Source: Trueperaceae bacterium (GTDB lineage Bacteria; Deinococcota; Deinococci; Deinococcales; Trueperaceae). From it: a stretch of 64,000 nucleotides of DNA. Positions 6,503 through 18,258 of the stretch are shown here, in pieces; the first letter of the stretch is position 1; each line of letters starts with the position of its first letter. Position numbers and translations under genes: made by a program. The stretch lies in assembly GCA_040905465.1 (NCBI GenBank), contig JBBDRK010000054.1:12697-76696 (forward strand), in the 5' to 3' direction. The notes below the pieces were generated by a model. It did not search any database and was not told the DNA's origin. It was given only the letters and a program-made list of their open reading frames with translations.

Positions 6503-6916
6503 GTGATCGTGCTGGTCACATCGACGGACAACACAGACCTGAAGGCGAAGCTCTTTCGCGGCTTGGCCGACCCGACGCGGTTGGGGATCCTGGAAACGTT
6601 GGGCGACCGCCGACTGTGCGTCGGCGACATCATCGACGCCACCAATTTGAGCCAGTCGAACGTGTCCAATCACCTGTCGTGCCTCAAGGATTGCGGCCTG
6701 GTGAGCAGCGAGCGACAGGGCCGCAACGTCTACTACCGCATCAGCGACCGGCGGGTAAACGCGCTCCTGGAGCTTTCACGGGAGTTGCTTGCCGACGTCG
6801 CCAAGGGTGTTTACGAATGCACCCGTTACTCGCAGCCGTCGGGTTCGGCGAGCGTTGTCGAAGGGGAGCAGGCCGCCGACGTCGCCGTCGAAAGCCAGGA
6901 GATAGCTGGTGCCTGA
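6503..6916 (+). CDS. ArsR/SmtB metalloregulator, CmtR-like (start may be GTG 6509)
   Basis: [26 protein letters not shown] (alpha4 CxxxC as in CmtR); C-terminal Cys in YECTRY. Confidence 0.88.
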
Positions 6917-9128
6917 CGCTCTCACCCGCTCCCTGCCAGCGGCCAGGTTCGAAACCGTCGAGATCCCGGTGCTGGGCATGGACTGTGGCAACTGCGCGAA
7001 CAGCGTGCGCGGTGCAGTCGAGCGGATCCGGGGCGTCGAGTCGGTCGAAGTGCTGCTCGCCGGCCAGCGAGCCGTGGTGACTCTCGACGTGTCCCAGACG
7101 AACGAGCAGGAAATCCGTGGCGCGATTCGGTCGGTCGGTTATGAATCTCCGGAGCCCGACGCGGCCGACGGGGGCGCGGGAACGGAGCGCACTGTGGAGG
7201 CCGGGCGCGCGGCTGCCCTCAGCCGGTCCGCCCTGGCGCTGATGAGCCTCGTCTTCGGCGTGGTGCTGCTGGTGGTGGTAGTGGGCGAATGGCTGGGCGC
7301 CTCCGCTGCACTGACCGAGCGCGTGCCGCTCTGGCTGGGCGCGCTGCTGGTGGCTGCCTTCGGCTTTCCGGTGTTCCGCAAGGTAGCGGCCAGCTTGCTG
7401 CGTGGGCGAATAGTCTCGCACACCCTGATGAGCAGCGGGGCGATGGCCGCCCTGGCGATAGGCGAGTGGGTTACTGCGGCATTGGTCGTGTTCTTCATGC
7501 GCGTCGGCGACTACGCCGAGAGTTTCACCACCGAGAGGGCCAGGCGCTCGCTTCGCGACCTGACGGCGCTCGTCCCCAAGACGGCCCGGATCGAGCGAAG
7601 CGAATTGGTGGAAGAAGAGGTTCCGGTCGATGAATTGCGGCGGGGAGACCTGGTGGTCGTCCGGCCGGGTGAGACGATCCCTGTCGACGGCGAGGTGATC
7701 AGCGGCAGCGCAACTGTCGATCGCGCCGCGCTGACCGGGGAGTCGCTGGCGGTCGAGGTCACGCCGGGAACGCGAGTTTTCGCCGCGACCGTCGCCCGGC
7801 TCGGCAGCTTGCGGGTCCGGGTGGACGGCGTAGGTCGCGACACCACGTTCGGCCAGGTGCTCAGGCAGGTTGAACGGGCCGAGGCCAACCGCGGCGATAC
7901 CCAGCGGCTGGCGGACCGGTTCGCCGCCTGGTACCTGCCGGTGGTGGCGACAATCGCCGTTGCCACCTACTTGGTGCGCGGCGATCTGCTGGCGGCGGTT
8001 GCGGTCACTGTGGTCGCCTGCTCGTGCGCGTTCGCACTGGCGGCTCCGGTCGCGATGCTGGCGTCGATCGGTGCGGCCGCCAAGCGGGGCCTGCTGATCA
8101 AGGGCGGGAAGTATATCGAGGCTCTGGCCAGGGCCGACGTGCTTCTGATCGACAAGACCGGAACGGTGACGTCCGGACGGCAGCGGCTCAGCGACGTGAT
8201 GCCGCTGGCGGGTCGGACCGAGCAAGGAGTGCTGGAGTTGGCGGCAGCGGCCGAACGCGACAGTGAGCACTCGCTGGGACGGGCGGTTGTCCGCGCTGCC
8301 GAAGAACGCGGGCTGACACCGATCCGGTCCGAGGCCTTCGAGGCCATGCCGGGCTGGGGCGTTCGCGCCGCGGTAGCTGGCCGAACGGTAGAGGTCGGTT
8401 CTCGGCGACTGCTGCCGGGTCCGCTCCTCTCCGATGGCGTCCTGGCGAGGTCCGCAGCCAGGCTGGAGAACCAAGGCAAGACGCTGCTGTTCGTGCTGGT
8501 CGATGGTGAACCGGCCGGTCTGCTGGCGACCAGCGATACCTTGCGCCCCGGCGTGGCAGCCGCCATCGAAGCCGCCCGCGGGATGGGGATCCGCCGTGTA
8601 GAACTGCTTACCGGTGATAACCGGCGCAGCGCCCAGGCGGTCGCCGCCGAATTGGGTATCGCTTACCGCGCCGAGCTGCTGCCCGGGGAGAAGCTCGAAG
8701 CCGTGAAAGAACACCAGGCCGCTGGCAGGACCGTAGTGATGATCGGAGATGGAGTCAACGACGCCCCGGCGCTCGCCCAGGCAGACGTTGGCGTTGCCAT
8801 GGGCGCGGCCGGAACCGACGTGGCGATCGAAACGGCTCACGTGGCCTTGATGAGCGACGATTGGAGTCGCCTGCCGGAGCTCTTTTCCATCGCCAGGCGG
8901 ACGATGGGCGTTGTGCGGCTGAACATCGGTTTTACCGCGGTCTACAACCTCATAGGCATTTCACTCGCCGCTCTCGGATTCCTGCCGCCCATCTTCGCGG
9001 CGGCGCTGCAGTCGCTTCCCGACCTCGGCATCATGGGCAACTCGGCACGCCTGCTCCGCCAGGACGCTCCGCGAACGGCGCGCCCCAGCCCCGCCGCCGT
9101 GCTGGAATCACCGGTTGCACAGCCGTGA
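6909..9128 (+). CDS. Heavy-metal P1B-type ATPase with CSC motif
   Basis: [45 protein letters not shown]. Confidence 0.95.
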
Positions 9129-9216
9129 TGGAACGAAACGGTCGTTAGGCGTGCCTCGATCACCTGCGGCCGGCCACGGTTCGTGAGGGGCTTCGCTCCG
9201 TGTTCCCGGGAGGTCG

Positions 9217-10194
9217 ATGAAGCCACACGGACACAGTCACGATAATCTTCACGATAATCTTCACGATAATCAGGTAGCCGGGGCCAGCGACGGGCGAATC
9301 CTGGGCACGGTAGCCCTGAACCTGCTGCTGACCGTCGCCCAGGCCGTGGGCGGGTTCATCGCTGGGTCGGTGGCGCTGATGGCCGACGCCCTGCACAATC
9401 TCAACGACGCCATGGCCCTGGTGATCGTTTATGCAGCGCGCCGCATCAGCCGCCGCAGCCCCGACCGAACGCGTACGTTCGGTTACCGCCGAGCGCAAGT
9501 TGTCGGCGCCACCATCAACCTCGTCGCGCTGGCGGTGGTTGGGCTCTTCCTGGCCTACGAGTCGCTACTGCGACTCTTCGAACCCAGGGAGGTGGACGGA
9601 TGGATCATGATCGGGCTGGCCGGTGTTGCGCTGCTGGTCGACGCGATCACAGTGCTGCTGCTTTTCACGATGCGGCGCGGAAGCGTCAATGTGCGGGCCG
9701 CGTTCGCGCACAACCTCAGCGACGCACTGGCGTCGCTGGCGGTGTTGAGCGGCGGGATCGCGATTCTCACGCTTGGCTGGAACTGGTTGGACGGGTTCCT
9801 GTCACTCCTGATCGTCGGCTACATTTTCTGGCAGGTGGCGCGGATGCTGCCGGAGACGTTGCGGGTACTGATGGAGAGCACGCCGGCAGGACTCGACCTG
9901 AACGAGGTCGTTTCGGCGATGACGGTCATCGAAGGCGTGCAGGACGCCCACCACCTGCACGTCTGGTTGCTCGACGAGAACAGGTGCGCGCTGGAAGCGC
10001 ATGTGGTGATCGGGAGCGAACAGGTGACACGGATGGAGAAGATCAAGGGGGAGATCAGGCAACGCTTGCGAGAGGAGTTCGCCATCACCCACACCACGCT
10101 CGAACTCGAGCTCCCCGAGACCGCCGGTGAAGCCGGCCACGATACCGCGCTTGTGTCCGAGCATTGCAGCGATCCTCGACCCGCGGACGGTTGA
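9217..10194 (+). CDS. czcD: Cation diffusion facilitator (CzcD-like Zn/Co/Cd exporter)
   Basis: His-rich N-terminus, ADALHNLND, TFGYRR, HNLSD, HHLHVW. Confidence 0.88.
   Translation: MKPHGHSHDNLHDNLHDNQVAGASDGRILGTVALNLLLTVAQAVGGFIAGSVALMADALHNLNDAMALVIVYAARRISRRSPDRTRTFGYRRAQVVGATINLVALAVVGLFLAYESLLRLFEPREVDGWIMIGLAGVALLVDAITVLLLFTMRRGSVNVRAAFAHNLSDALASLAVLSGGIAILTLGWNWLDGFLSLLIVGYIFWQVARMLPETLRVLMESTPAGLDLNEVVSAMTVIEGVQDAHHLHVWLLDENRCALEAHVVIGSEQVTRMEKIKGEIRQRLREEFAITHTTLELELPETAGEAGHDTALVSEHCSDPRPADG
9238..9271 (+). repeat. 12-bp tandem repeat encoding HDNL
   Basis: CACGATAATCTT twice, plus partial CACGATAATC. Confidence 0.9.
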
Positions 10195-10197
10195 CGG

Positions 10198-10596
10198 ATG
10201 AAGCGGATGCCTGAGAACGAGGCCGCGGAGAATACCCTCGTCAGCTTCGTCCGGTCGAGCGAGCGACGAGTTGCCGGTGAACGCCTGCAGGTGTGGAAAT
10301 CCGAAGCTACGGGGCGGGAGTTCGAGGTCCGCGAGTCCAACTCGTACGCGCTCGGCGCTGATCTGACGCCGGGGTCGCCCGGGTACGTCACCTACGCCGG
10401 CAGCGCACCGACGGTTACCGAGCGGCCGTTGCCACGTAGCGAACGCCTGCGCCGGTACAACCGGCAGCGGATGCTGGCGCAGCAGTCGCAAGGGGAAGCG
10501 CGGCGGAAAGGGTCGTCGTTCCCGGTGGGCTGGCTGCTCGTGATGGTGCTGCTGCTGGCGATCTCGTGGGCGCTGTTCTCGCCGGCGGGCCGATAG
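10198..10596 (+). CDS. Hypothetical protein with C-terminal transmembrane helix
   Basis: 132-aa ORF directly after czcD; hydrophobic WLLVMVLLLAISWALF. Confidence 0.55.
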   Translation: MKRMPENEAAENTLVSFVRSSERRVAGERLQVWKSEATGREFEVRESNSYALGADLTPGSPGYVTYAGSAPTVTERPLPRSERLRRYNRQRMLAQQSQGEARRKGSSFPVGWLLVMVLLLAISWALFSPAGR

Positions 10597-10702
10597 CCGT
10601 ACGGTCGCTAAGCAGGGTCGACGGACTTCGCGTCAGAATGCGAATCAGGCGCTGGTGTGCCGGCGGTGACGGGGTGACAGTGGGGTGGGAGGTTGGGACC
10701 CC

Positions 10703-13309
10703 ATGGCACCGCTCGACGAGTACCGCAAGAAACGGGACTTCCGGCGCACGCCGGAGCCGGCCGGGCAGGTTTCCGCCTCGCCCGGAGAGGGCGGCGGACT
10801 CTTCGTGGTGCACAAGCACGCGACACAGCGGCTGCACTTCGACCTGCGGCTCGAGCAAGACGGCGTGCTGCGCAGTTGGGCCGTGCCGAAGGGGCCCAGT
10901 CTCGATCCCGGCGAGAAGCGCCTGGCGGTAGAGGTCGAGGATCATCCGCTCGAGTACGGCGAGTTCGAGGGTGTGATTCCCGAAGACGAGTACGGCGGCG
11001 GGACGGTCATGCTCTGGGACCGCGGTCATTGGCGGCCCCGCAAGAAGCCGAGCGACGACCGGCTCGACTTCGAGCTCGAAGGGCACAAGCTGACCGGTGC
11101 CTGGACGCTCGTGCGGATGAGCGGCGAACGGAGCGACGACGGCAAGAACTGGCTGCTCATCAAGCGGAGCGACGAGAGCGGCGCGAACGACGCTACCGAC
11201 GCGGCCGATACGGTCGACGCGAGTGTCATCACCGGCCGCACCATGCGGGAGATAGCTAGCGACCGAGACGCGATCTGGACCGCCAAGGGATCGCAGTCCC
11301 CGTCGCGCCCGCAGGCTCCGGATGCCGGGCGACTAGCGGGTTCTCGCAAGAGGGGGTTGGCCGCGGACCCCCAGCCGCAGCTCGCGAGCCTGGTGGACGA
11401 AGCTCCCGTCGGCGATGACTGGCTCCACGAGATCAAGTTCGACGGCTACCGCATCCTGGCGCGGCTCGAGCGCGAAGGTGACGAGCTAACCGCCAGGTTG
11501 CTGAGTCGCAACGGCAAGGACTGGACCGACCGGTTCGCCAAACTCGCGCCGGTGCTCGCCAGGCTGCCTGCCGACAGCGCTCTCGTCGACGGCGAAGTGG
11601 TCGCCTTTTCCGCCGACGGCAGCAGCAGCTTCCGAAGGCTGCAGGAGGCTCTCAGCGAAGGACGCACCGGTCACCTCGTGTATCAGGCGTTCGACCTGCT
11701 GTACCTGGGCGGCTACGACCTCACCGCCACTCCGTTGTTGGAACGCAAGCGCGCCTTGGCCGGGCTACTGGCGGGAGCCAGTCTGGGCGGCAGTGGAACA
11801 GTTCGCGTCACCGATCACCAGGTGGGAAAGGGACCGGCCTTCTTCGAGCAGGCGTGCGGACTCGGCCTGGAGGGGATCATCAGCAAGCGGCGCGACGCAC
11901 CCTATCGCCCGGGCCGGGGCAAGGACTGGGTCAAGGTCAAGTGCACCCGGCAGGAGGAGCTGCTGATCGGCGGTTTCAGCGACCCCTCTGGCTCGCGCGC
12001 AGGTTTCGGCGCCCTGCTGCTGGGCGGCTATGACGAAAGCGGAAAACTGGTCTATGCCGGCAAGGTCGGCACCGGCTTCAGTGACCGCCATCTGCGGGAG
12101 CTGCACGGCAGGCTCAGAGAGCTGGAGGTAGCAGAGGCGCCCTTCGATTCGGCGCCGTCCGGCCGGGGGGTGCACTGGGTTCGGCCGGTATTGGTGGCGG
12201 AGGTTGAGTTCACAGAGTGGACGCGCGACGGCGCCTTGCGGCACCCCAGTTTTCGGGGGTTGCGCGAGGACCGGGAGCCGGAGGAGATAAGGATGCCAGC
12301 GGCGATGTCGGTAAGCAAGCGGACGAAAGCCGGTTCCGGCAACTCCAAACGCGACGAGGGTGTCGAGAGCGGCAAACCCGTAGGCGAGCGCTCGGAACGA
12401 CGACCCAGGAAGGGTGAGGCCCAGGTGGCCGGGGTGCGGCTGAGCAGCCCCGACAGGGTGCTCTACCCCGAGCAGGGTGTCACCAAGCTGGCGCTGGCCC
12501 AGTACTACGAGGACATCGCCGAGTGGATCCTGCCCCACCTGGCTAACCGGCCGCTCTCGCTAGTGCGTTGCCCGCAAGGTCGCGAGAAGCAGTGCTTCTT
12601 CCAGAAACACCCGGACGAGGCGCTGGCCAAGGACACGGCAAGGGTCGAGATCGAGGAGTCCGACGGGCCGGCTCCGTACCTCTACGCGCGCACCCTGGCC
12701 GACATCGTTTCTCTGGTTCAGGCCGGTGTCCTCGAGTTGCACGTGTGGGGTAGCCGAGTGGATGATGTCGAGCGACCCGACATTCTTGTTTTCGACCTCG
12801 ACCCGGCGCCCGACGTTCCCTGGTCGGAGATGCTGCGCGCAGTGCGCGAGCTGCGTGATCGGCTGGCCGAGCTGGGCCTGGAGAGCTTCCCGCGCACCAC
12901 TGGAGGCAAGGGGCTGCACCTGGTGGTGCCGCTGGAGCGGGGACCGAGGTGGGACGAGGCCAAGGAGTTCGCCCATGCCGTGGCCAAGGCGCACGAGAGC
13001 GACGACCGCCGCCGGATCACCACCAATATGTCCAAAGCCAAGCGCCGCGGAAAGATCTTCCTCGACTACCTGCGCAACGGCCGCGGTGCCACAGCGATCG
13101 CCTCCTACTCCACCCGCTCGCGCGAAGGCGCGCCGGTGGCGGTGCCGGTGCGCTGGGACGAGCTTGGCGGAGCGATGCGGGCGGATCGCTACGACATAAG
13201 CAACCTGAGGCGGCGCCTGGCGGCGCTGAGATCCGATCCGTGGGCGGAGTTCGATGAGGCGCGTCGACCGCTCACCAAGAAGATGCTCGCCCGGGTCGGC
13301 CCGAAGTAG
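10703..13309 (+). CDS. ligD: NHEJ DNA ligase D (phosphoesterase-ligase-polymerase)
   Basis: PE domain (HFDLRLE, SWAVPKGPS), ligase EIKFDGYR and EGIISKR, Pol domain FDLDP, TTGGKGLH, IFLDYLRN. Confidence 0.97.
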   Translation: MAPLDEYRKKRDFRRTPEPAGQVSASPGEGGGLFVVHKHATQRLHFDLRLEQDGVLRSWAVPKGPSLDPGEKRLAVEVEDHPLEYGEFEGVIPEDEYGGGTVMLWDRGHWRPRKKPSDDRLDFELEGHKLTGAWTLVRMSGERSDDGKNWLLIKRSDESGANDATDAADTVDASVITGRTMREIASDRDAIWTAKGSQSPSRPQAPDAGRLAGSRKRGLAADPQPQLASLVDEAPVGDDWLHEIKFDGYRILARLEREGDELTARLLSRNGKDWTDRFAKLAPVLARLPADSALVDGEVVAFSADGSSSFRRLQEALSEGRTGHLVYQAFDLLYLGGYDLTATPLLERKRALAGLLAGASLGGSGTVRVTDHQVGKGPAFFEQACGLGLEGIISKRRDAPYRPGRGKDWVKVKCTRQEELLIGGFSDPSGSRAGFGALLLGGYDESGKLVYAGKVGTGFSDRHLRELHGRLRELEVAEAPFDSAPSGRGVHWVRPVLVAEVEFTEWTRDGALRHPSFRGLREDREPEEIRMPAAMSVSKRTKAGSGNSKRDEGVESGKPVGERSERRPRKGEAQVAGVRLSSPDRVLYPEQGVTKLALAQYYEDIAEWILPHLANRPLSLVRCPQGREKQCFFQKHPDEALAKDTARVEIEESDGPAPYLYARTLADIVSLVQAGVLELHVWGSRVDDVERPDILVFDLDPAPDVPWSEMLRAVRELRDRLAELGLESFPRTTGGKGLHLVVPLERGPRWDEAKEFAHAVAKAHESDDRRRITTNMSKAKRRGKIFLDYLRNGRGATAIASYSTRSREGAPVAVPVRWDELGGAMRADRYDISNLRRRLAALRSDPWAEFDEARRPLTKKMLARVGPK

Positions 13310-13338
13310 GGAAGATGGCGTGATCAAAGGAAGGGGAG

Positions 13339-13557
13339 GTGAGTGACTTGACGACCGAATCTGTAGCTGCAAACGGTTCGCCCTGGTGGCTCGAGCCGGG
13401 GGTCGAGGAGTGCGAACTCTGCCTGCGAAGAGTTCACTACGAGGTGCTGTACCACTGCAGCGAGTGCGACCGGCCGCTGTGCCCGAGCTGTAGCGTCGCC
13501 GTGCTGGAGCGGCGGGTAGTCGTGTGCGAAGGCTGCCACACCGCCGAGTCCGGCTGA
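13339..13557 (+). CDS. Small 8-Cys zinc-finger-like protein
   Basis: CELC, HCSEC, CPSC, CEGCH; GGAGG RBS; TGATG stop/start overlap with ku. Confidence 0.75.
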   Translation: MSDLTTESVAANGSPWWLEPGVEECELCLRRVHYEVLYHCSECDRPLCPSCSVAVLERRVVVCEGCHTAESG

Positions 13558-14333
13558 TGGCGGCGCGGGCGATGTGGAAAGGGGTGATCCGCTTCGGCGG
13601 GGCGGCCGTGCCTGTGAAGCTCTACTCGGCGCTGGAGGACCGGAGCGTGCACTTCCGGATGCTGCACGAGACCGACCATGTGCCGGTGAAGCAGCAGATG
13701 ATCAACCCCGAAACCGACCAGGAGGTGCCGTACGCCGATGCCCTGCGCGGCTTCGTGACCGACGACGGCGACCTGGTGATACTCGAGCCGGAGGAGCTCG
13801 AATCGGTCGAACCAGAAGCCTCGCGCGACATCGATATCTTGAGTTTCCTGCCACCGGAAGCGATCGATCACCGCTGGTATCTGCGCCCCTATTATCTCGG
13901 CCCCGACGGTCCCAGCGAGCCGTACTTCGCGCTCGTGACGGCGCTGGAGCGTGCCGGCCGCGAGGGCCTGGCGCGCTGGACCATGCGCAACAAGGAGTAT
14001 GTCGGGGCGTTGCGCCTGCACCGCGGCTACCCGATGCTGATCGCCTTGCGCAATGAGCAGCAGGTTGTACCGGTCGACGCACTGGAGGCGCCGGCCGGAG
14101 CCAAGCTCGACGACAAGGAGCTGGGTATGGCCCGGCAGCTCATGGAGATGCTGGAGGCGTCGTTCGAGCCGGAGGAGTACCGGGACGAGTACCGAGCCCG
14201 GGTGCTGGAGCTGATCGAGACCAAGGCCAAAGGCGGCGAGGTCGAAACCAGGCGGCGCCGCAAGACCCCGCGCTACGAGGACCTCTCCGGTGCCCTGCGG
14301 GCCAGCCTCGAGAAGGAGCGGATCCGTGCCTGA
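13557..14333 (+). CDS. ku: NHEJ Ku protein, copy 1
   Basis: RAMWKGVIRFG...VPVKLYSA, PYYLGPD, FEPEEYRDEY, LRASL. Confidence 0.92.
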   Translation: MAARAMWKGVIRFGGAAVPVKLYSALEDRSVHFRMLHETDHVPVKQQMINPETDQEVPYADALRGFVTDDGDLVILEPEELESVEPEASRDIDILSFLPPEAIDHRWYLRPYYLGPDGPSEPYFALVTALERAGREGLARWTMRNKEYVGALRLHRGYPMLIALRNEQQVVPVDALEAPAGAKLDDKELGMARQLMEMLEASFEPEEYRDEYRARVLELIETKAKGGEVETRRRRKTPRYEDLSGALRASLEKERIRA

Positions 14334-15204
14334 AGCGAAGAAATCGGAACGACCCCGCTTGCGGCCGTTCTGGTCGGGAACCATAGCGTTCGGACTGGTG
14401 AGCCTGCCGGTGAGCCTGTTCGTGGCGAATCGCGGCAAACGGGTTTCGCTGCGCCTGGTCGACGACGACGGCACGCCCCTCAGCCGCCGTTACCTCTGCC
14501 CGGCCGAGGAGAAGCCCCTGTCGAACGACGAGATCGTCCGCGGCTATGAAGTCGCAAAGGACGAGTTCGTGGTGGTGAGCGACGACGAACTCGACGCCCT
14601 GGCTCCGGAGAAGTCGCAGGAGATAGACCTGCGACGCTTCGTCGCCCTCAGCGGGATCGACCCGGTTTACTTCGAGCGGGCCTACTTCCTGGCGCCCGAC
14701 AAGGGGGCATCGAAGGCGTACCGGCTCCTGGCTCGGGCGATGGAGGAGAGCGGGCGCGCGGGCGTGGCCACTTTCGTGATGCGCGGCAAGGAGTACCTGG
14801 TGGCGATCATCGCCGAGAAGGGGATTCTTCGGGCGGAGACGCTGAGATTCCACGACGAGTTGCGTTCGCCCGAGCAGGTAGGGCTGCCCGCGCTGGAGGA
14901 GGTGGAGGCCGCGCGGGTCGAAGAGTTAGAACGGGAGATCGACGCGCTCGCCGACGAGGAGCTCGACCGGTCCGAACTGGCCGACCGCCAGGCAGACAGG
15001 ATGCTGGAGCTGGTGCAGCGCAAGCTCGAGAGCGGCGACGACGTGGTAGCGGCGCCGGAGGAGCTCGAACCCGAGGAGGGCGACCAGACGATCGACCTGA
15101 TGCAGGTCCTCAAGCAGAGCCTCGAGGAGATCGCGCCGGAGGGAGATCAAGCGGCCGACTCCGGCCGGCGCTCGAAACATCGTGAAGGGAGAGGTGTGAG
15201 ATGA
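14326..15204 (+). CDS. ku: NHEJ Ku protein, copy 2
   Basis: RPFWSGTIAFGLVSLPV, IDPVYFERAYFLAP, KAYRLL, IDLMQVLKQSL. Confidence 0.93.
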   Translation: MPEAKKSERPRLRPFWSGTIAFGLVSLPVSLFVANRGKRVSLRLVDDDGTPLSRRYLCPAEEKPLSNDEIVRGYEVAKDEFVVVSDDELDALAPEKSQEIDLRRFVALSGIDPVYFERAYFLAPDKGASKAYRLLARAMEESGRAGVATFVMRGKEYLVAIIAEKGILRAETLRFHDELRSPEQVGLPALEEVEAARVEELEREIDALADEELDRSELADRQADRMLELVQRKLESGDDVVAAPEELEPEEGDQTIDLMQVLKQSLEEIAPEGDQAADSGRRSKHREGRGVR

Positions 15205-15710
15205 ACACGCACGCGACGAGCGAAGGGATACTGGGCAGCAACGAAGGCAAGAAGCGCGAGAAGATCGTGGAACTGTTGAAACGGGCCTACTTCGCGGAAC
15301 TGGAAACGGTGATGAACTACGTGACCAACTCGATCAATCCCGACGGGGTGCGGGCGCAGGAGATAATCGAGGCGCTCGAGCAGGACATCGGCGAGGAGCT
15401 GCAACACGCCCAGCAGTTCGGCCGGCGAATCAAGGAGCTCTACGGCGTGGTCCCGGGCTCGCACGAGTTCCAGGCGAGCCAGCAGAGCCTCCAGCCGCCC
15501 GCCAAGCAGACCGACGTCGTGCACGTGATCAGAGGGGTGATCGAGGCCGAGACCCGAGCGATCGAACTGTACACGCGCATCGTCGACGAGACCGACCGGA
15601 TCGACCCGGTCACCAACGATATGGTCATCGGCATCCTGCGCGACGAGCAAGGGCATCGCCGGCTATTCGAGGGCTTCCTGCGCGAGTACGAGATGGAAGG
15701 CCTTGCCTGA
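15201..15710 (+). CDS. Ferritin-like (bacterioferritin/DPSL-type) diiron protein
   Basis: E...EELQH and EAE...DEQGH paired motifs; ATGA overlap with ku2. Confidence 0.85.
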   Translation: MNTHATSEGILGSNEGKKREKIVELLKRAYFAELETVMNYVTNSINPDGVRAQEIIEALEQDIGEELQHAQQFGRRIKELYGVVPGSHEFQASQQSLQPPAKQTDVVHVIRGVIEAETRAIELYTRIVDETDRIDPVTNDMVIGILRDEQGHRRLFEGFLREYEMEGLA

Positions 15711-15888
15711 ACAGGACTCAATCTGAACCCGCTTTACGCGGGGTAGAGTGGCCTCGATGCGTGCCGGTAGAGCCGGGCGGTGTCGGCTGGCGCGGCAGAG
15801 GTAGGAGCGCGTGGGCGCCGGCGTTGTCGTCGGCGTATCCTTCAGCGGTCTTACCGGCGCGAGCGATCGCCAGATGACGGGAGTGCCG

Positions 15889-18258
15889 ATGCACGATTTG
15901 CAGGAAGAGACGGCGGTCAGCCGGCCCGGAAGCGAAGATGCGCTATTCGAACGGCACCTGCGTATGGTACGGGTTCTGCTGCTGGCGTTGCTGGCCGTCC
16001 TGCTGCTCATCATCGGATTGAACCTCGCGCTACTCGGGACGGACGGCCTCAGTAGAAGTGGAACCGGCCTGCTGCTGGTCGGGATGTCGATACTGGTGCT
16101 CCTCGCGCTTGCGCGAGTGCGCGTCAGGCGCCTCGGTCAGGCCGTGGGCCTGGTCGTCTTCGGCACGCTCGCCCTGCTGGCTCTGGAAACGGCGGAGGCG
16201 GGCATCTCCGCGAGTACCACCTTCCTCTTCGCCTATACCGTACCCATTGCCTTTGCGGGGCTGCTGGTCGGGCGCCTGGCCCTCGTCGGCACTGCGTTGG
16301 CGAGCGTCGGCATCGTCGTGGGAGTCCACCTGCTGGAGCGCGCCGGCAGCGGTCTCGTCGCTACCGACCCCGACGTCGGCTCGCCGGCCACAGTTGTCAT
16401 AGTGTTCGTCCTGATCGTCGGCTTGTTGTCGTTGGTGCTGGAACGGTTCGGGGTGGAACTCCGGAACGCCCACCAGGCTGCGTTGCGCCGTCAGAGCGAG
16501 CTGGCGCGACTGGTGGCAGTATTGGAGCGCGAAATCGAGGAGCGAAAACAGGCGGAAGTCGCGCGCGACCGCAGTGAGGAGCGGCTGAGCATAACGTCCG
16601 AGGCGGTGGGTATCGGTACCTGGAGTTGGGACCTGGAAACCGGCGAGCTCGTCTGGTCCGATTCAATGAAGGATCTCCTGGGAGTCCCTCGTGACGTAGT
16701 TCCCTCACTCGAACTCTTCATCGAGCTTGTCCATCCGGAGGATCGCCCGGTACTGGCAGAGATGAGTGCGTCACCCGACGAGTCGGTCGAGACAAGCGAG
16801 ATGACCTACCGCCTGCTCAGACGCGACGGCGGCGTGGCATGGGTCGCCGCCCGCTATCGCACCTTTCCAGGCGAGGACGGGCGCGGGCAGCAAGTCGGAG
16901 CGATGTACGAGATAACCGACCGCATGGAGGCCGCCCGAGAGCGGGAAAGCCTTCTCGAAAGGGAACGATCGGCGCGAGCGGCGGCCGAATCTTCGGGTGC
17001 CAAGCTCGCCTTCCTGGCGGAAGCGAGTCACCTGCTCGGGTCGTCTCTCGACTTCGCCGAGACGTTGAGTCGCCTCGGCGGGCTGATGGTTCCCCGCTGG
17101 GCCGACTGGTGCGCGGTAGATATCCTGGATGCCGACGGCAACGCGCAGCGCCTGTCGGTAACGCACCAGGATTCCTCGAAAGTCGAGGCTGCTCACGAGA
17201 TTCAACGGCGGTACCCGTCGCAACCGGACCGGCCCGGAACGGCCGCGACGCTGGCCAGTGGCGTCACCCAGTACCTGCCCGATATCAGCGATGCCGACCT
17301 GCAGGGGGTAGCCCAGGACGGGGAGCACCTGAGAAGACTCCGCGAATTGGGGTTTTCCTCGCTGGTGGTAGTCCCGCTGAACCTGCGGGGTAGAACGTTG
17401 GGAGCACTCAGCCTGGTTACGGCCGAGTCGGGCAAGCGTTACACGCAGGAGGATGTGCTGTTCTTCGAGGAGCTTGCGGGGCGCGCTGCTGTGGCCGTGG
17501 CGCACGCCCGGCTGTTCGCCGAGGTGCGGGAACTGAACCAGGAGCTCGAACGGCGGGTTGAACAGCGCACCAGCGAACTCAGCGACGCCCTGGGTGAGCT
17601 GGAGACCTTCGCCTACAGCGTCTCGCACGACTTGCGCGCGCCGCTGCGCGGCATAGACGGCTTCAGCCAGGCCCTGCTGGAGGATTATGCGGGCCGGTTG
17701 GACGACGAAGCCGTGCAGTATCTCGATCGGATACGCGGCGGGGCGCGCCGCATGGGGGAACTCATAGACGACCTGCTCAACCTCTCGCGCCTGTCGCAAG
17801 GGGAACTGAACGAGGAACAGGTAGATCTCGGCGCGCTCGCAGCCGAGATCGTGGCCGGCCTTCGGGCCGAGCAACCGGACCGTGATGTAACCGTCGAGAT
17901 AGCTCCGGAGCTGCACGCGCGCGGAGACTACCGGCTGCTACGAATCGCGCTCGAGAACATCATCGGCAACGCCTGGAAGTTCACCGCCCTGGCCCAGCAG
18001 CCGCGTATCGAGGTCGGGGCCACCAACGAGAATGGCAGTACGGTCTACTTCGTGCGCGACAACGGTACCGGCTTCGATATGAGCTACGTCGACAAGCTGT
18101 TCGCCCCGTTCCAACGGCTCCATTCACCCCAGAAGTTCGAGGGAACGGGTATTGGACTGGCTACGGCTCAACGGGTGCTGCGCCGTCACGGTGGCCGAAT
18201 CTGGGCCGAGAGCGTCGTGGACGATGGAGCCACCTTCTACTTCACCATCGGAACGTAA
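15889..18258 (+). CDS. Membrane PAS/GAF sensor histidine kinase
   Basis: About 6 TM helices, PAS (VHPEDR), GAF (ADWCAVD), SHDLRAPL, GNAWKF, GTGIGLA; start uncertain. Confidence 0.92.
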   Translation: MHDLQEETAVSRPGSEDALFERHLRMVRVLLLALLAVLLLIIGLNLALLGTDGLSRSGTGLLLVGMSILVLLALARVRVRRLGQAVGLVVFGTLALLALETAEAGISASTTFLFAYTVPIAFAGLLVGRLALVGTALASVGIVVGVHLLERAGSGLVATDPDVGSPATVVIVFVLIVGLLSLVLERFGVELRNAHQAALRRQSELARLVAVLEREIEERKQAEVARDRSEERLSITSEAVGIGTWSWDLETGELVWSDSMKDLLGVPRDVVPSLELFIELVHPEDRPVLAEMSASPDESVETSEMTYRLLRRDGGVAWVAARYRTFPGEDGRGQQVGAMYEITDRMEAARERESLLERERSARAAAESSGAKLAFLAEASHLLGSSLDFAETLSRLGGLMVPRWADWCAVDILDADGNAQRLSVTHQDSSKVEAAHEIQRRYPSQPDRPGTAATLASGVTQYLPDISDADLQGVAQDGEHLRRLRELGFSSLVVVPLNLRGRTLGALSLVTAESGKRYTQEDVLFFEELAGRAAVAVAHARLFAEVRELNQELERRVEQRTSELSDALGELETFAYSVSHDLRAPLRGIDGFSQALLEDYAGRLDDEAVQYLDRIRGGARRMGELIDDLLNLSRLSQGELNEEQVDLGALAAEIVAGLRAEQPDRDVTVEIAPELHARGDYRLLRIALENIIGNAWKFTALAQQPRIEVGATNENGSTVYFVRDNGTGFDMSYVDKLFAPFQRLHSPQKFEGTGIGLATAQRVLRRHGGRIWAESVVDDGATFYFTIGT

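Follow-up and report, generated by a model that had tools for sequence, protein, structure and literature searches.

A small eight-cysteine protein encoded beside paired bacterial ku genes and its predicted place on the Ku ring

In bacteria, non-homologous end joining (NHEJ) has been described as a two-component process involving a Ku homodimer and LigD (PMC12784961, PMC12784962). In Sinorhizobium meliloti, two diverged ku paralogues, ku3 and ku4, share an operon and are always found together. Genetic evidence that one pathway needs both genes led to the proposal of a heterodimer (PMC6379672). Vaccinia C16/C4 is described as sterically blocking access of DNA to the preformed Ku ring (PMC9674614). 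The proteins APLF, WRN and MRI dock on Ku via a short Pro/Trp motif, with the core R-X-X-P-X-W (PMC4831024). Here, we describe a small gene, which we call znf, in a 64,000-nucleotide stretch of DNA from a Trueperaceae bacterium (contig JBBDRK010000054.1 of assembly GCA_040905465.1). The whole stretch is referred to as the window. The gene lies between ligD and two adjacent ku genes, ku1 and ku2, and its product, Znf, has four CxxC pairs. Sequence comparison suggests that Znf is a third component of bacterial end joining with a two-paralogue Ku. It is conserved, unnamed and, as far as our searches reach, undescribed.

The original prediction for this locus, made from the DNA letters, held that no characterised NHEJ accessory factor was of this kind. 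Literature searches found no description of one. Briefly, full-text searches, which did not extend to the Burroughs-Iyer-Aravind survey of prokaryotic binuclear treble clefs, recovered neither a zinc-finger or cysteine-rich gene with bacterial ku nor a DNA mimic acting on bacterial Ku. Excerpts of two surveys of Ku and NHEJ evolution, supplements aside, mention no such gene (PMC11936186, PMC7719229).

znf is restricted to paired ku genes

Word-indexed searching recovered Znf itself and one relative with 78% identity only. A HMMER scan of 1.84 billion representatives identified 198 proteins at E≤1e-3, including 12 at E≤1e-10. The motif C-x2-C-x11-C-x2-C-x4-C-x2-C-x9-15-C-x2-C was present in 146 of the 152 family proteins examined. 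The x11 and x4 spacers are constant in all 146, and members are 58–112 amino acids (aa) long. The six proteins left out of the alignment are the long, repetitive and Cys-rich P0038, P0043 and P0054, and the family-like P0078, P0127 and P0138, which are without a regular last Cys pair. All eight cysteines are invariant in the 146-row alignment. Residues W17, G21 and D44 are at least 90% conserved; D44 is kept in 143 rows and E35 in 114. Majority residues are P15, W16, L18, E23, E35, P46, P49 and P64. Mean identity across phyla is ~45%. This conservation is far beyond chance. Hence, given the invariant cysteines and the constancy of W17, G21 and D44, the open reading frame (ORF) is a real gene and not a chance one.

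The family has no name in the sources searched. For 10 Znf clusters, source names were 'hypothetical protein' in five cases and missing in five. Matches in the ESM Atlas were to unnamed clusters only. Nothing in Pfam or NCBIfam scored above cut-off, and neither PHROG nor PADLOC gave a match. No protein of 197–2000 aa matched the family profile, which is weak evidence on fused forms. A tblastn search of 72,556 plasmid records with Znf found no match, and plasmid Ku genes are <40% identical to Ku1. Three other candidates were rejected. A second weak match in the window's own genome (contig C43, E 0.017) fell short of the family profile, and two matches on viral contigs are not family members.

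The neighbourhood of znf was then compared between genomes. Among 60 relatives of the window's genome, three other genera of the same family hold znf between ligD and ku1-ku2. A pattern scan of 185,579 species genomes yielded 21 znf loci, which carry at least five different phylum labels. Named in the titles are Trueperaceae, Gemmatimonadales, Longimicrobiales, several Acidobacteriota, Thermomicrobiales, Planctomycetales and a 'proteobacterium'. In 21 of 21 loci, znf has a Ku1-type gene directly 3' of it and on the same strand, with a Ku2-type gene next in all 20 whose contig continues. Scanning metagenomes gave 48 loci, and Ku1 was directly downstream in 40 of 40 testable family loci. The other eight comprise four members at a contig edge (L038, L046, L052, L070) and four that do not belong to the family (L073, L077, L078, L081). 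The latter are B-box-like heads of other proteins. Three of them (L073, L077, L078) share C-x2-C-D-R-P-x-C-x2-C with the Znf family, followed by hydrophobic stretches, and are false matches in pattern scans. Some loci are the same or nearly the same DNA in different collections (for example L002/L009 and L003/L012) and so are not independent. Besides the window's, 40 distinct Ku1 sequences were found. In every locus with both genes, ku1 starts between −29 and +9 nt from the znf stop.

The position of ligD is less regular. It was found within the 4-kb flank in 8 of the 21 genome loci, four times upstream on the same strand and four times downstream on the opposite one. The remaining flanking genes show no conservation (77 ORFs from 16 of the 20 loci listed). 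Since LigD is in the flank of only these eight loci, the constant partner of Znf is the Ku1-Ku2 pair and not LigD. Homologues are thus not randomly located, the outcome on which the original prediction depended. The co-occurrence it proposed with both ku and ligD stands for the Ku pair, which is always present; LigD is only sometimes adjacent, and some ligD-ku1-ku2 loci are without znf.

Ku1 and Ku2 are diverged paralogues. They are ~30% identical, with a cross-identity of 27–38% (tblastn, genome loci), and Ku2 forms a clade separate from Ku1 (support 100/100). The two genes are adjacent wherever the contig continues. Hence, Ku1-Ku2 has the layout of a heterodimer-type Ku: two diverged, adjacent paralogues that are always together. 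Pairwise identities across 26 loci co-vary between Znf and Ku1 (0.63), Znf and Ku2 (0.61), and Ku1 and Ku2 (0.82). This reflects shared history only and singles out no partner.

We examined samples of genomes for znf beside paired and lone ku genes. The window's genome and its relatives total 61; nine of these have Ku, always as adjacent pairs, and four of the nine have znf. In a Pyrinomonadaceae-type sample of 81 genomes, strong Znf matches (E≤1e-16) occurred in exactly the seven genomes with a tandem Ku pair, each directly beside the pair. The same seven genomes encode a third, lone Ku on another contig, where there is no znf gene. One further genome of the sample (G074) has a lone Ku only and no strong Znf match. 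Weaker matches in this sample (3e-5 to 9e-4) fall in frames of ~250–570 aa elsewhere and were rejected as other proteins. In a sample of 81 genomes of the order Gemmatimonadales, 73 have Ku, mostly as one lone copy, and 19 tandem pairs were identified by coordinates. The znf gene is directly upstream of 15 of the 19 pairs. The samples include unpublished genomes: G175 (with znf), G223 (without), G147 (lone Ku), and G078 and G082 (no Ku, weak matches). Leaving these out, znf accompanies 14 of 17 Gemmatimonadales pairs. Among pair-less Gemmatimonadales genomes, G205 alone has a Znf match, and this is decayed. We conclude that znf is restricted to Ku pairs, and it was not found beside a lone Ku.

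The decayed locus (L085, G205:C96:51600-52700) encodes the C-terminal two thirds of Znf, without the WW head and first CxxC, beside a 57-residue fragment of Ku1. Otherwise, G205 has one lone Ku only. Genomes with znf-ku1-ku2 usually hold a third, lone Ku (G061, G062, G065 and the Pyrinomonadaceae-type and Gemmatimonadales samples), and it is this lone Ku that has the higher Pfam score. Such genomes may therefore harbour two end-joining sets, as in S. meliloti.

The locus and the predicted fold

The features of the locus are listed below. Coordinates are positions in the full window.

10685 to 13309, forward strand: ligD, 874 aa; Pfam LigD_N, DNA_ligase_A_M, DNA_ligase_A_C and LigD_Prim-Pol
13335 to 13339, forward strand: ribosome-binding site GGAGG, read directly from the sequence
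13339 to 13557, forward strand: znf, encoding the eight-cysteine zinc protein; GTG start, 72 aa, ORF read directly
13557 to 14333, forward strand: ku1, 258 aa; Pfam Ku 2e-31, TIGR02772 243.1 bits
14290 to 15204, forward strand: ku2, up to 304 aa; Pfam Ku 8e-42, TIGR02772 245.2 bits
15201 to 15710, forward strand: ferritin-like gene; Pfam Ferritin 6e-14, Rubrerythrin 8e-6

Reading of the ORF and of the flanking domains bore out the 72-aa frame between ligD and ku. Its four CxxC pairs are C25/C28, C40/C43, C48/C51 and C63/C66. The GC content per codon position (0.64/0.52/0.80) follows a pattern like that of ligD, ku1 and ku2. The predicted TGATG coupling to ku1 is present as described: the znf stop (TGA, 13555–13557) shares its A with the ku1 ATG (13557–13559). 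The product from this ATG begins MAARAMWKG, which fits the consensus start of Ku1 orthologues, MAARAIWKG. The predicted good ribosome-binding site stood in part. The GGAGG is there, but it overlaps the G of GTG 13339, a spacing of 0, whereas the spacing to an in-frame TTG at 13348 is 8 nt. Hence, the real start may be TTG 13348, giving a protein of 69 aa.

Both Ku products exceed the 150-bit cut-off of TIGR02772, the equivalog model for bacterial Ku. The listed GTG of ku2 overlaps the end of ku1 by 44 nt (14290–14333). The conserved Ku2 core starts near residue 25, so the ku2 start is uncertain. LigD of the window is a three-domain protein with phosphoesterase, ligase and Prim-Pol domains. The operon order is ligD-znf-ku1-ku2-ferritin-like, and the ATG of the last gene overlaps the ku2 stop (ATGA). 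A ferritin-like gene is also 3' of ku2 in a second genome of the genus (G002); none was observed at the loci from other genera or phyla. It is probably the last operon gene in the window's genus. A promoter and terminator scan of 10000–16200 found signals no more often than in shuffled sequence.

Just upstream of ligD, genes at 6909–10194 encode an HMA-domain heavy-metal P-type ATPase and a cation-efflux (CDF) transporter. The latter has a zinc-transporter dimerisation domain and a His-rich head, HDNLHDNLHDN. That metal export here is tied to the zinc protein of the next operon is only a thought. In one Gemmatimonadales member (L010, 4001–4333), Znf has a ~60-aa Gly/Ala-rich tail derived from a GGTGGCGCGGGT-like DNA repeat. 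This znf gene ends 1 nt before the ku1 GTG.

The fold of Znf was modelled with AlphaFold2 using the 146-row alignment. Mean pLDDT was 83.5 and pTM was 0.56; block means across residues 21–50 ranged from 94 to 96. The predicted chain forms two hairpins plus, from the last CxxC onwards, a C-terminal helix. In a profile search of PDB sequences, there were weak matches to the ALFY FYVE domain (3e-5), a cellulose-synthase RING-like finger, melanophilin and NOT4, all of them two-zinc cross-brace fingers. The Trp and four Cys pairs of Znf align column for column with the FYVE domain of ALFY/WDFY3 (6w9n). A Foldseek search of the PDB with the model returned nothing at E≤1e-3; the top rows were FYVE and PHD fingers. 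A search independent of Foldseek (VIA) found 15 chains at Z≥2 and none at Z≥5. FYVE or Rab-effector type fingers account for nine of the 15, and the rabphilin, melanophilin and RIM rows reach Z 2.1–3.0 only.

Profile scores for Znf are below the gathering cut-offs of each Pfam family considered: FYVE (PF01363, 13.3 against 27.8 bits), FYVE_2 (PF02318, 18.0 against 27.2), B-box (PF00643, 14.5 against 24.1) and zf_RING-like (13.6 against 27). Weak matches among the 146 members are most often to FYVE_2 (40, best E 9e-6); FYVE matches nine weakly and Prok-RING_1 two only. FYVE-type ligand spacing (x11 / x4 / x9-15) was found in all 146. Hence, of the two-zinc FYVE- or B-box-like fold in the original prediction, the FYVE-type spacing and the weak profile and fold matches hold up, while the FYVE and B-box scores stay below cut-off. 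The model looks like a FYVE-type two-zinc finger, and Znf is a member of no Pfam family.

The family is acidic. Median net charge is −5 and median pI is 4.74. Of the 146 members, 129 carry a negative charge overall and 124 have a net negative finger core. There is no conserved basic patch.

A predicted site on the Ku ring

The complex was predicted from Ku1 (41-row alignment), Ku2 residues 22–278 (35 rows) and two zinc ions, with Znf (146 rows) as the scored partner. The interface score, ipSAE, was 0.86 (0.85, 0.87 and 0.86 in separate runs), against 0.02 for the best of three controls. Replacing Znf with two unrelated small proteins gave 0.00 and 0.00; replacing Ku1 with an unrelated protein gave 0.02. 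Of 157 solved complexes, 116 reach the ipSAE mark, as do 2 of 215 mismatched pairs; these counts are only a rough calibration here because our own alignments were used and zinc was included. Runs share at least 71% of contacts, and Znf has pLDDT of at least 76. No solved complex of this type, from which the model could have drawn its answer, is known to us. Modelling the protein alone and in complex, the check attached to the original prediction, thus gave a confident fold and a controlled interface. The prediction supports, and does not show, binding of Znf to Ku1 and Ku2.

Confident interface positions are as follows. In Ku1 they are 4, 6, 24, 26–28, 30, 32–35, 44, 46, 48, 59, 110 and 112. 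In Ku2 they are 45, 47–50, 53–54, 56, 66, 79–80, 82, 84, 87–90, 98, 130 and 164–167. In Znf they are 13–18, 22–24, 27–31, 33–35, 38–44, 49–50, 52, 54, 56 and 59–61. The positions listed for Ku1 and Ku2 are largely equivalent, which places a single copy of Znf on the pseudo-twofold axis of the modelled pair.

We compared these positions with the solved core of Bacillus subtilis Ku (9vnq_A), to which Ku1 aligns at E 7e-35. In B. subtilis Ku, the second DNA motif of each arm is described as comprising H19, T20, M21, W22, K23, K36, K106, R126, Y128 and R161, with R188 of the other protomer. DNA binding is lost in the R49A/K79A and R126A/R161A/R188A mutants (PMC12784961). The 9vnq_A construct starts at Met18, and the numbering fits chain index plus 17, which was checked at each named residue. 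Ku2 was matched to Ku1 by eye on conserved motifs. The mapped positions are listed below.

B. subtilis Ku L48, R49, S50: Ku1 F33, R34, M35; Ku2 L54, R55, L56
B. subtilis Ku K60, Y61: Ku1 K45, Q46; Ku2 R66, R67
B. subtilis Ku K79: Ku1 R64; Ku2 R84
B. subtilis Ku H19 to K23: Ku1 R4 to K8; Ku2 not listed
B. subtilis Ku R126, Y128: Ku1 R110, Y112; Ku2 R130, Y132
B. subtilis Ku R161: Ku1 R144; Ku2 R165

Eight of 15 mapped DNA-contact positions are in the Ku1 interface (R4, M6, F33, R34, M35, Q46, R110, Y112) and six of 15 are in that of Ku2 (L54, L56, R66, R84, R130, R165). The expected overlap is ~1 per subunit, given interfaces of 17 of 258 residues in Ku1 and 23 of 257 in Ku2. Pairs with low predicted error include Znf D44 with Ku1 R110, Znf E35 with Ku2 R165 and Znf W17 with Ku2 R84. 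The B. subtilis counterpart of Ku2 R165, R161, is described as the Arg entering the minor groove (PMC12784961). Basic and aromatic DNA-contact residues are kept in both Ku paralogues. Hence, the Ku1-Ku2 pair looks able to bind DNA and should still do so. The simplest reading of the model is that the acidic finger would occupy the DNA path of the Ku ring. A DNA mimic should be acidic and sit where DNA sits. Znf is acidic, and its occupancy of the path is predicted, with 14 of 30 mapped DNA-contact positions in the modelled interface.

We propose that Znf plugs a heterodimer-type Ku ring as an acidic, stoichiometric DNA mimic and serves as its assembly chaperone or gatekeeper. We judge the chances of this proposal, which leans on the modelled complex, to be about even. 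Briefly, a small acidic two-zinc protein, with a predicted FYVE-like cross-brace type fold, would be made together with Ku1 through translational coupling. One copy would bind the Ku1-Ku2 hetero-pair on the predicted pseudo-twofold axis. [quoted passage not shown] Znf would therefore be a DNA-competitive plug. As an assembly chaperone, it could shield the basic channel and favour the hetero-pair over homo-pairs. As a gatekeeper, it could prevent Ku from loading on undamaged DNA until displaced by DNA ends, a signal or stress. A single asymmetric ligand on the dyad would favour a hetero-pair, which would explain why Znf is never seen with a lone Ku.

Several observations weigh against this proposal. 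The case for binding is the confidence of one model. Placement inside the ring comes from residue mapping at ~35% identity to B. subtilis Ku and not from geometry. The fold matches are weak, the best being the RIM zinc finger at Z 3.0 with an rmsd of 2.0 Å over 39 residues. A plug that blocks DNA entry would require a release step. Some Ku pairs are without znf: five of the nine relatives with Ku, including G001 and G002 of the window's genus, have ligD-ku1-ku2 with no CxxC ORF between, and no CxxC ORF was found at four of the 19 Gemmatimonadales pairs (G157, G195, G216, G223). Finally, a test for relaxed constraint in lineages without znf flagged Ku1 E169 and L176 and Ku2 I179 and D189, none of which is in the predicted Znf interface.

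The pattern of loss was examined with a maximum-likelihood tree of Ku1 (49 rows). The window's relatives fall together in one clade (100/100), where loci with and without znf are interleaved. Groupings include (G014,(window,(G001,G002))), with support of 99/94, and (G025,(G007,G016)), with 90/77. Every other clade carries znf. On our own reading, the tree would need at least three changes, most simply three losses of znf. Znf is therefore optional. Since lineages lose it yet keep the Ku pair, it is dispensable, and would be a modulator and not a core part. In G001, the ligD-ku1 spacer of ~100 nt (L030, contig C25) holds a Cys-poor ORF of 33 aa, whose ATG overlaps the ligD stop and whose TGA overlaps the ku1 ATG. 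This may be a remnant or a coupling device. In G002, considered for a trace of a deletion, the end of ligD ('..SG*' then TGATG) resembles the end of znf in the window, with different codons.

Other roles for Znf are conceivable. The strongest alternative, though an improbable one, is a positive adaptor or clamp on the Ku pair that stabilises the heterodimer, or recruits LigD or another factor, without competing with DNA. Coupling, synteny and the complex score would fit such an adaptor too, znf lies between ligD and ku1 in the window, and the nearest folds (the RIM, rabphilin and melanophilin zinc fingers) are protein-protein modules. However, in both subunits the contacts predicted for Znf are at positions that touch DNA. 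In addition, ligD is in the flank of a minority of genome loci, half of these with ligD downstream on the other strand, and no other flanking gene is conserved. Hence, of the adaptor for Ku and LigD in the original prediction, the Ku half agrees with the controlled complex prediction and the LigD half loses its constant partner.

Somewhat less probable still is a redox or zinc switch; a redox switch was also named in the original prediction. Oxidative or desiccation stress would oxidise the eight thiolates, zinc would be lost, and Znf would unfold to release or activate Ku. End joining would then be gated by the same stress that makes breaks. Thiolate-zinc centres can be redox sensors in other proteins. 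The eight ligands of Znf are all invariant cysteines and include no His; in the window's genus, a ferritin-like gene closes the operon. In S. meliloti, ku3-ku4 are described as stress-induced at the level of transcription (PMC6379672). Against this, all-Cys zinc sites are mostly structural, and the ferritin-like neighbour is confined to the window's genus. Such a switch could also be layered on the plug as its release step, and the all-Cys zinc sites make oxidation a candidate trigger.

Two further roles are very unlikely. The first, an independent sensor of DNA ends or nicks like the zinc fingers of other repair enzymes, is suggested by a zinc finger in a repair operon and by one weak fold row, a GATA finger on DNA (Z 2.2), but is at odds with an acidic family whose negative core has no conserved basic patch and with a gene never found away from the Ku pair. 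A free-standing DNA-end binder, as in the original prediction, is likewise unlikely: at a median charge of −5, and predicted on the DNA-contact residues of Ku, Znf would compete with DNA. The second is either a cis-acting upstream ORF whose translation does no more than set that of ku1, or a small protein that autoregulates the operon. It draws on the universal overlap or near-abutment with the ku1 start and on the ORF bridging ligD and ku1 in G001, but an ORF that served for coupling only would not be expected to retain eight Cys, W17, G21 and D44 across phyla at such low mean identity, nor to have a confident fold and specific predicted interface, and Znf is without DNA-binding features.

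The plug proposal can be extended to a three-part Ku, in which a zinc-thiolate DNA mimic would come with a heterodimeric ring as its plug. Being single and asymmetric, the plug would fit a hetero-pair only, and it would hold the ring shut against DNA until expelled by a DNA end or by oxidative or desiccation stress. End joining would then be gated at the level of protein. We offer this extended version tentatively and consider it doubtful.

The tie between Znf and two-paralogue Ku extends over soil and sediment lineages of several phyla. If the plug proposal is correct, Znf would give a handle on why some bacteria keep a heterodimer-type Ku. It would be a natural protein inhibitor or chaperone of the Ku ring, and the three proteins would form a simple system for studying how Ku loading on DNA is controlled. 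For annotators, about 200 clusters of 'hypothetical proteins' could be named.

Comparison with known systems

Znf shares with FYVE and FYVE_2 fingers eight ligands, an inner C-x2-C-x4-C-x2-C and a Trp ~8 residues before the first Cys. The model, with its two hairpins and a C-terminal helix from the last CxxC, is also like these fingers. Unlike them, Znf is bacterial, stand-alone, acidic and tied to Ku, and all of its Pfam scores are below cut-off. FYVE domains have a basic phosphoinositide pocket, R(R/K)HHCR, before the third Cys. In Znf, this motif is replaced: before C40, position 38 is Y or V and position 39 is R, H or Y, with no basic run.

Like the eukaryotic proteins with a Ku-binding motif, Znf has a Pro/Trp cluster, P15-W16-W17. 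This likeness is weak and was set aside; R-X-X-P-X-W occurs in 17 of 146 members and P-X-W in 88 of 146. The eukaryotic motif binds the vWA domain of Ku80, which is absent from bacterial Ku, and the Trp of Znf is in a folded zinc domain.

The ku1-ku2 pair of the window is like ku3-ku4 of S. meliloti in being two diverged, adjacent paralogues in one operon. Excerpts of the S. meliloti report, unlike the window, describe no zinc-finger gene (PMC6379672). The closest working analogue of the predicted Znf is vaccinia C16/C4, where the ring is likewise blocked to DNA. C16/C4 differs in being a viral antagonist of host Ku70/80, a large dimer and of unrelated fold. Conversely, the plug proposed here would be encoded by the cell itself, within the ku operon.

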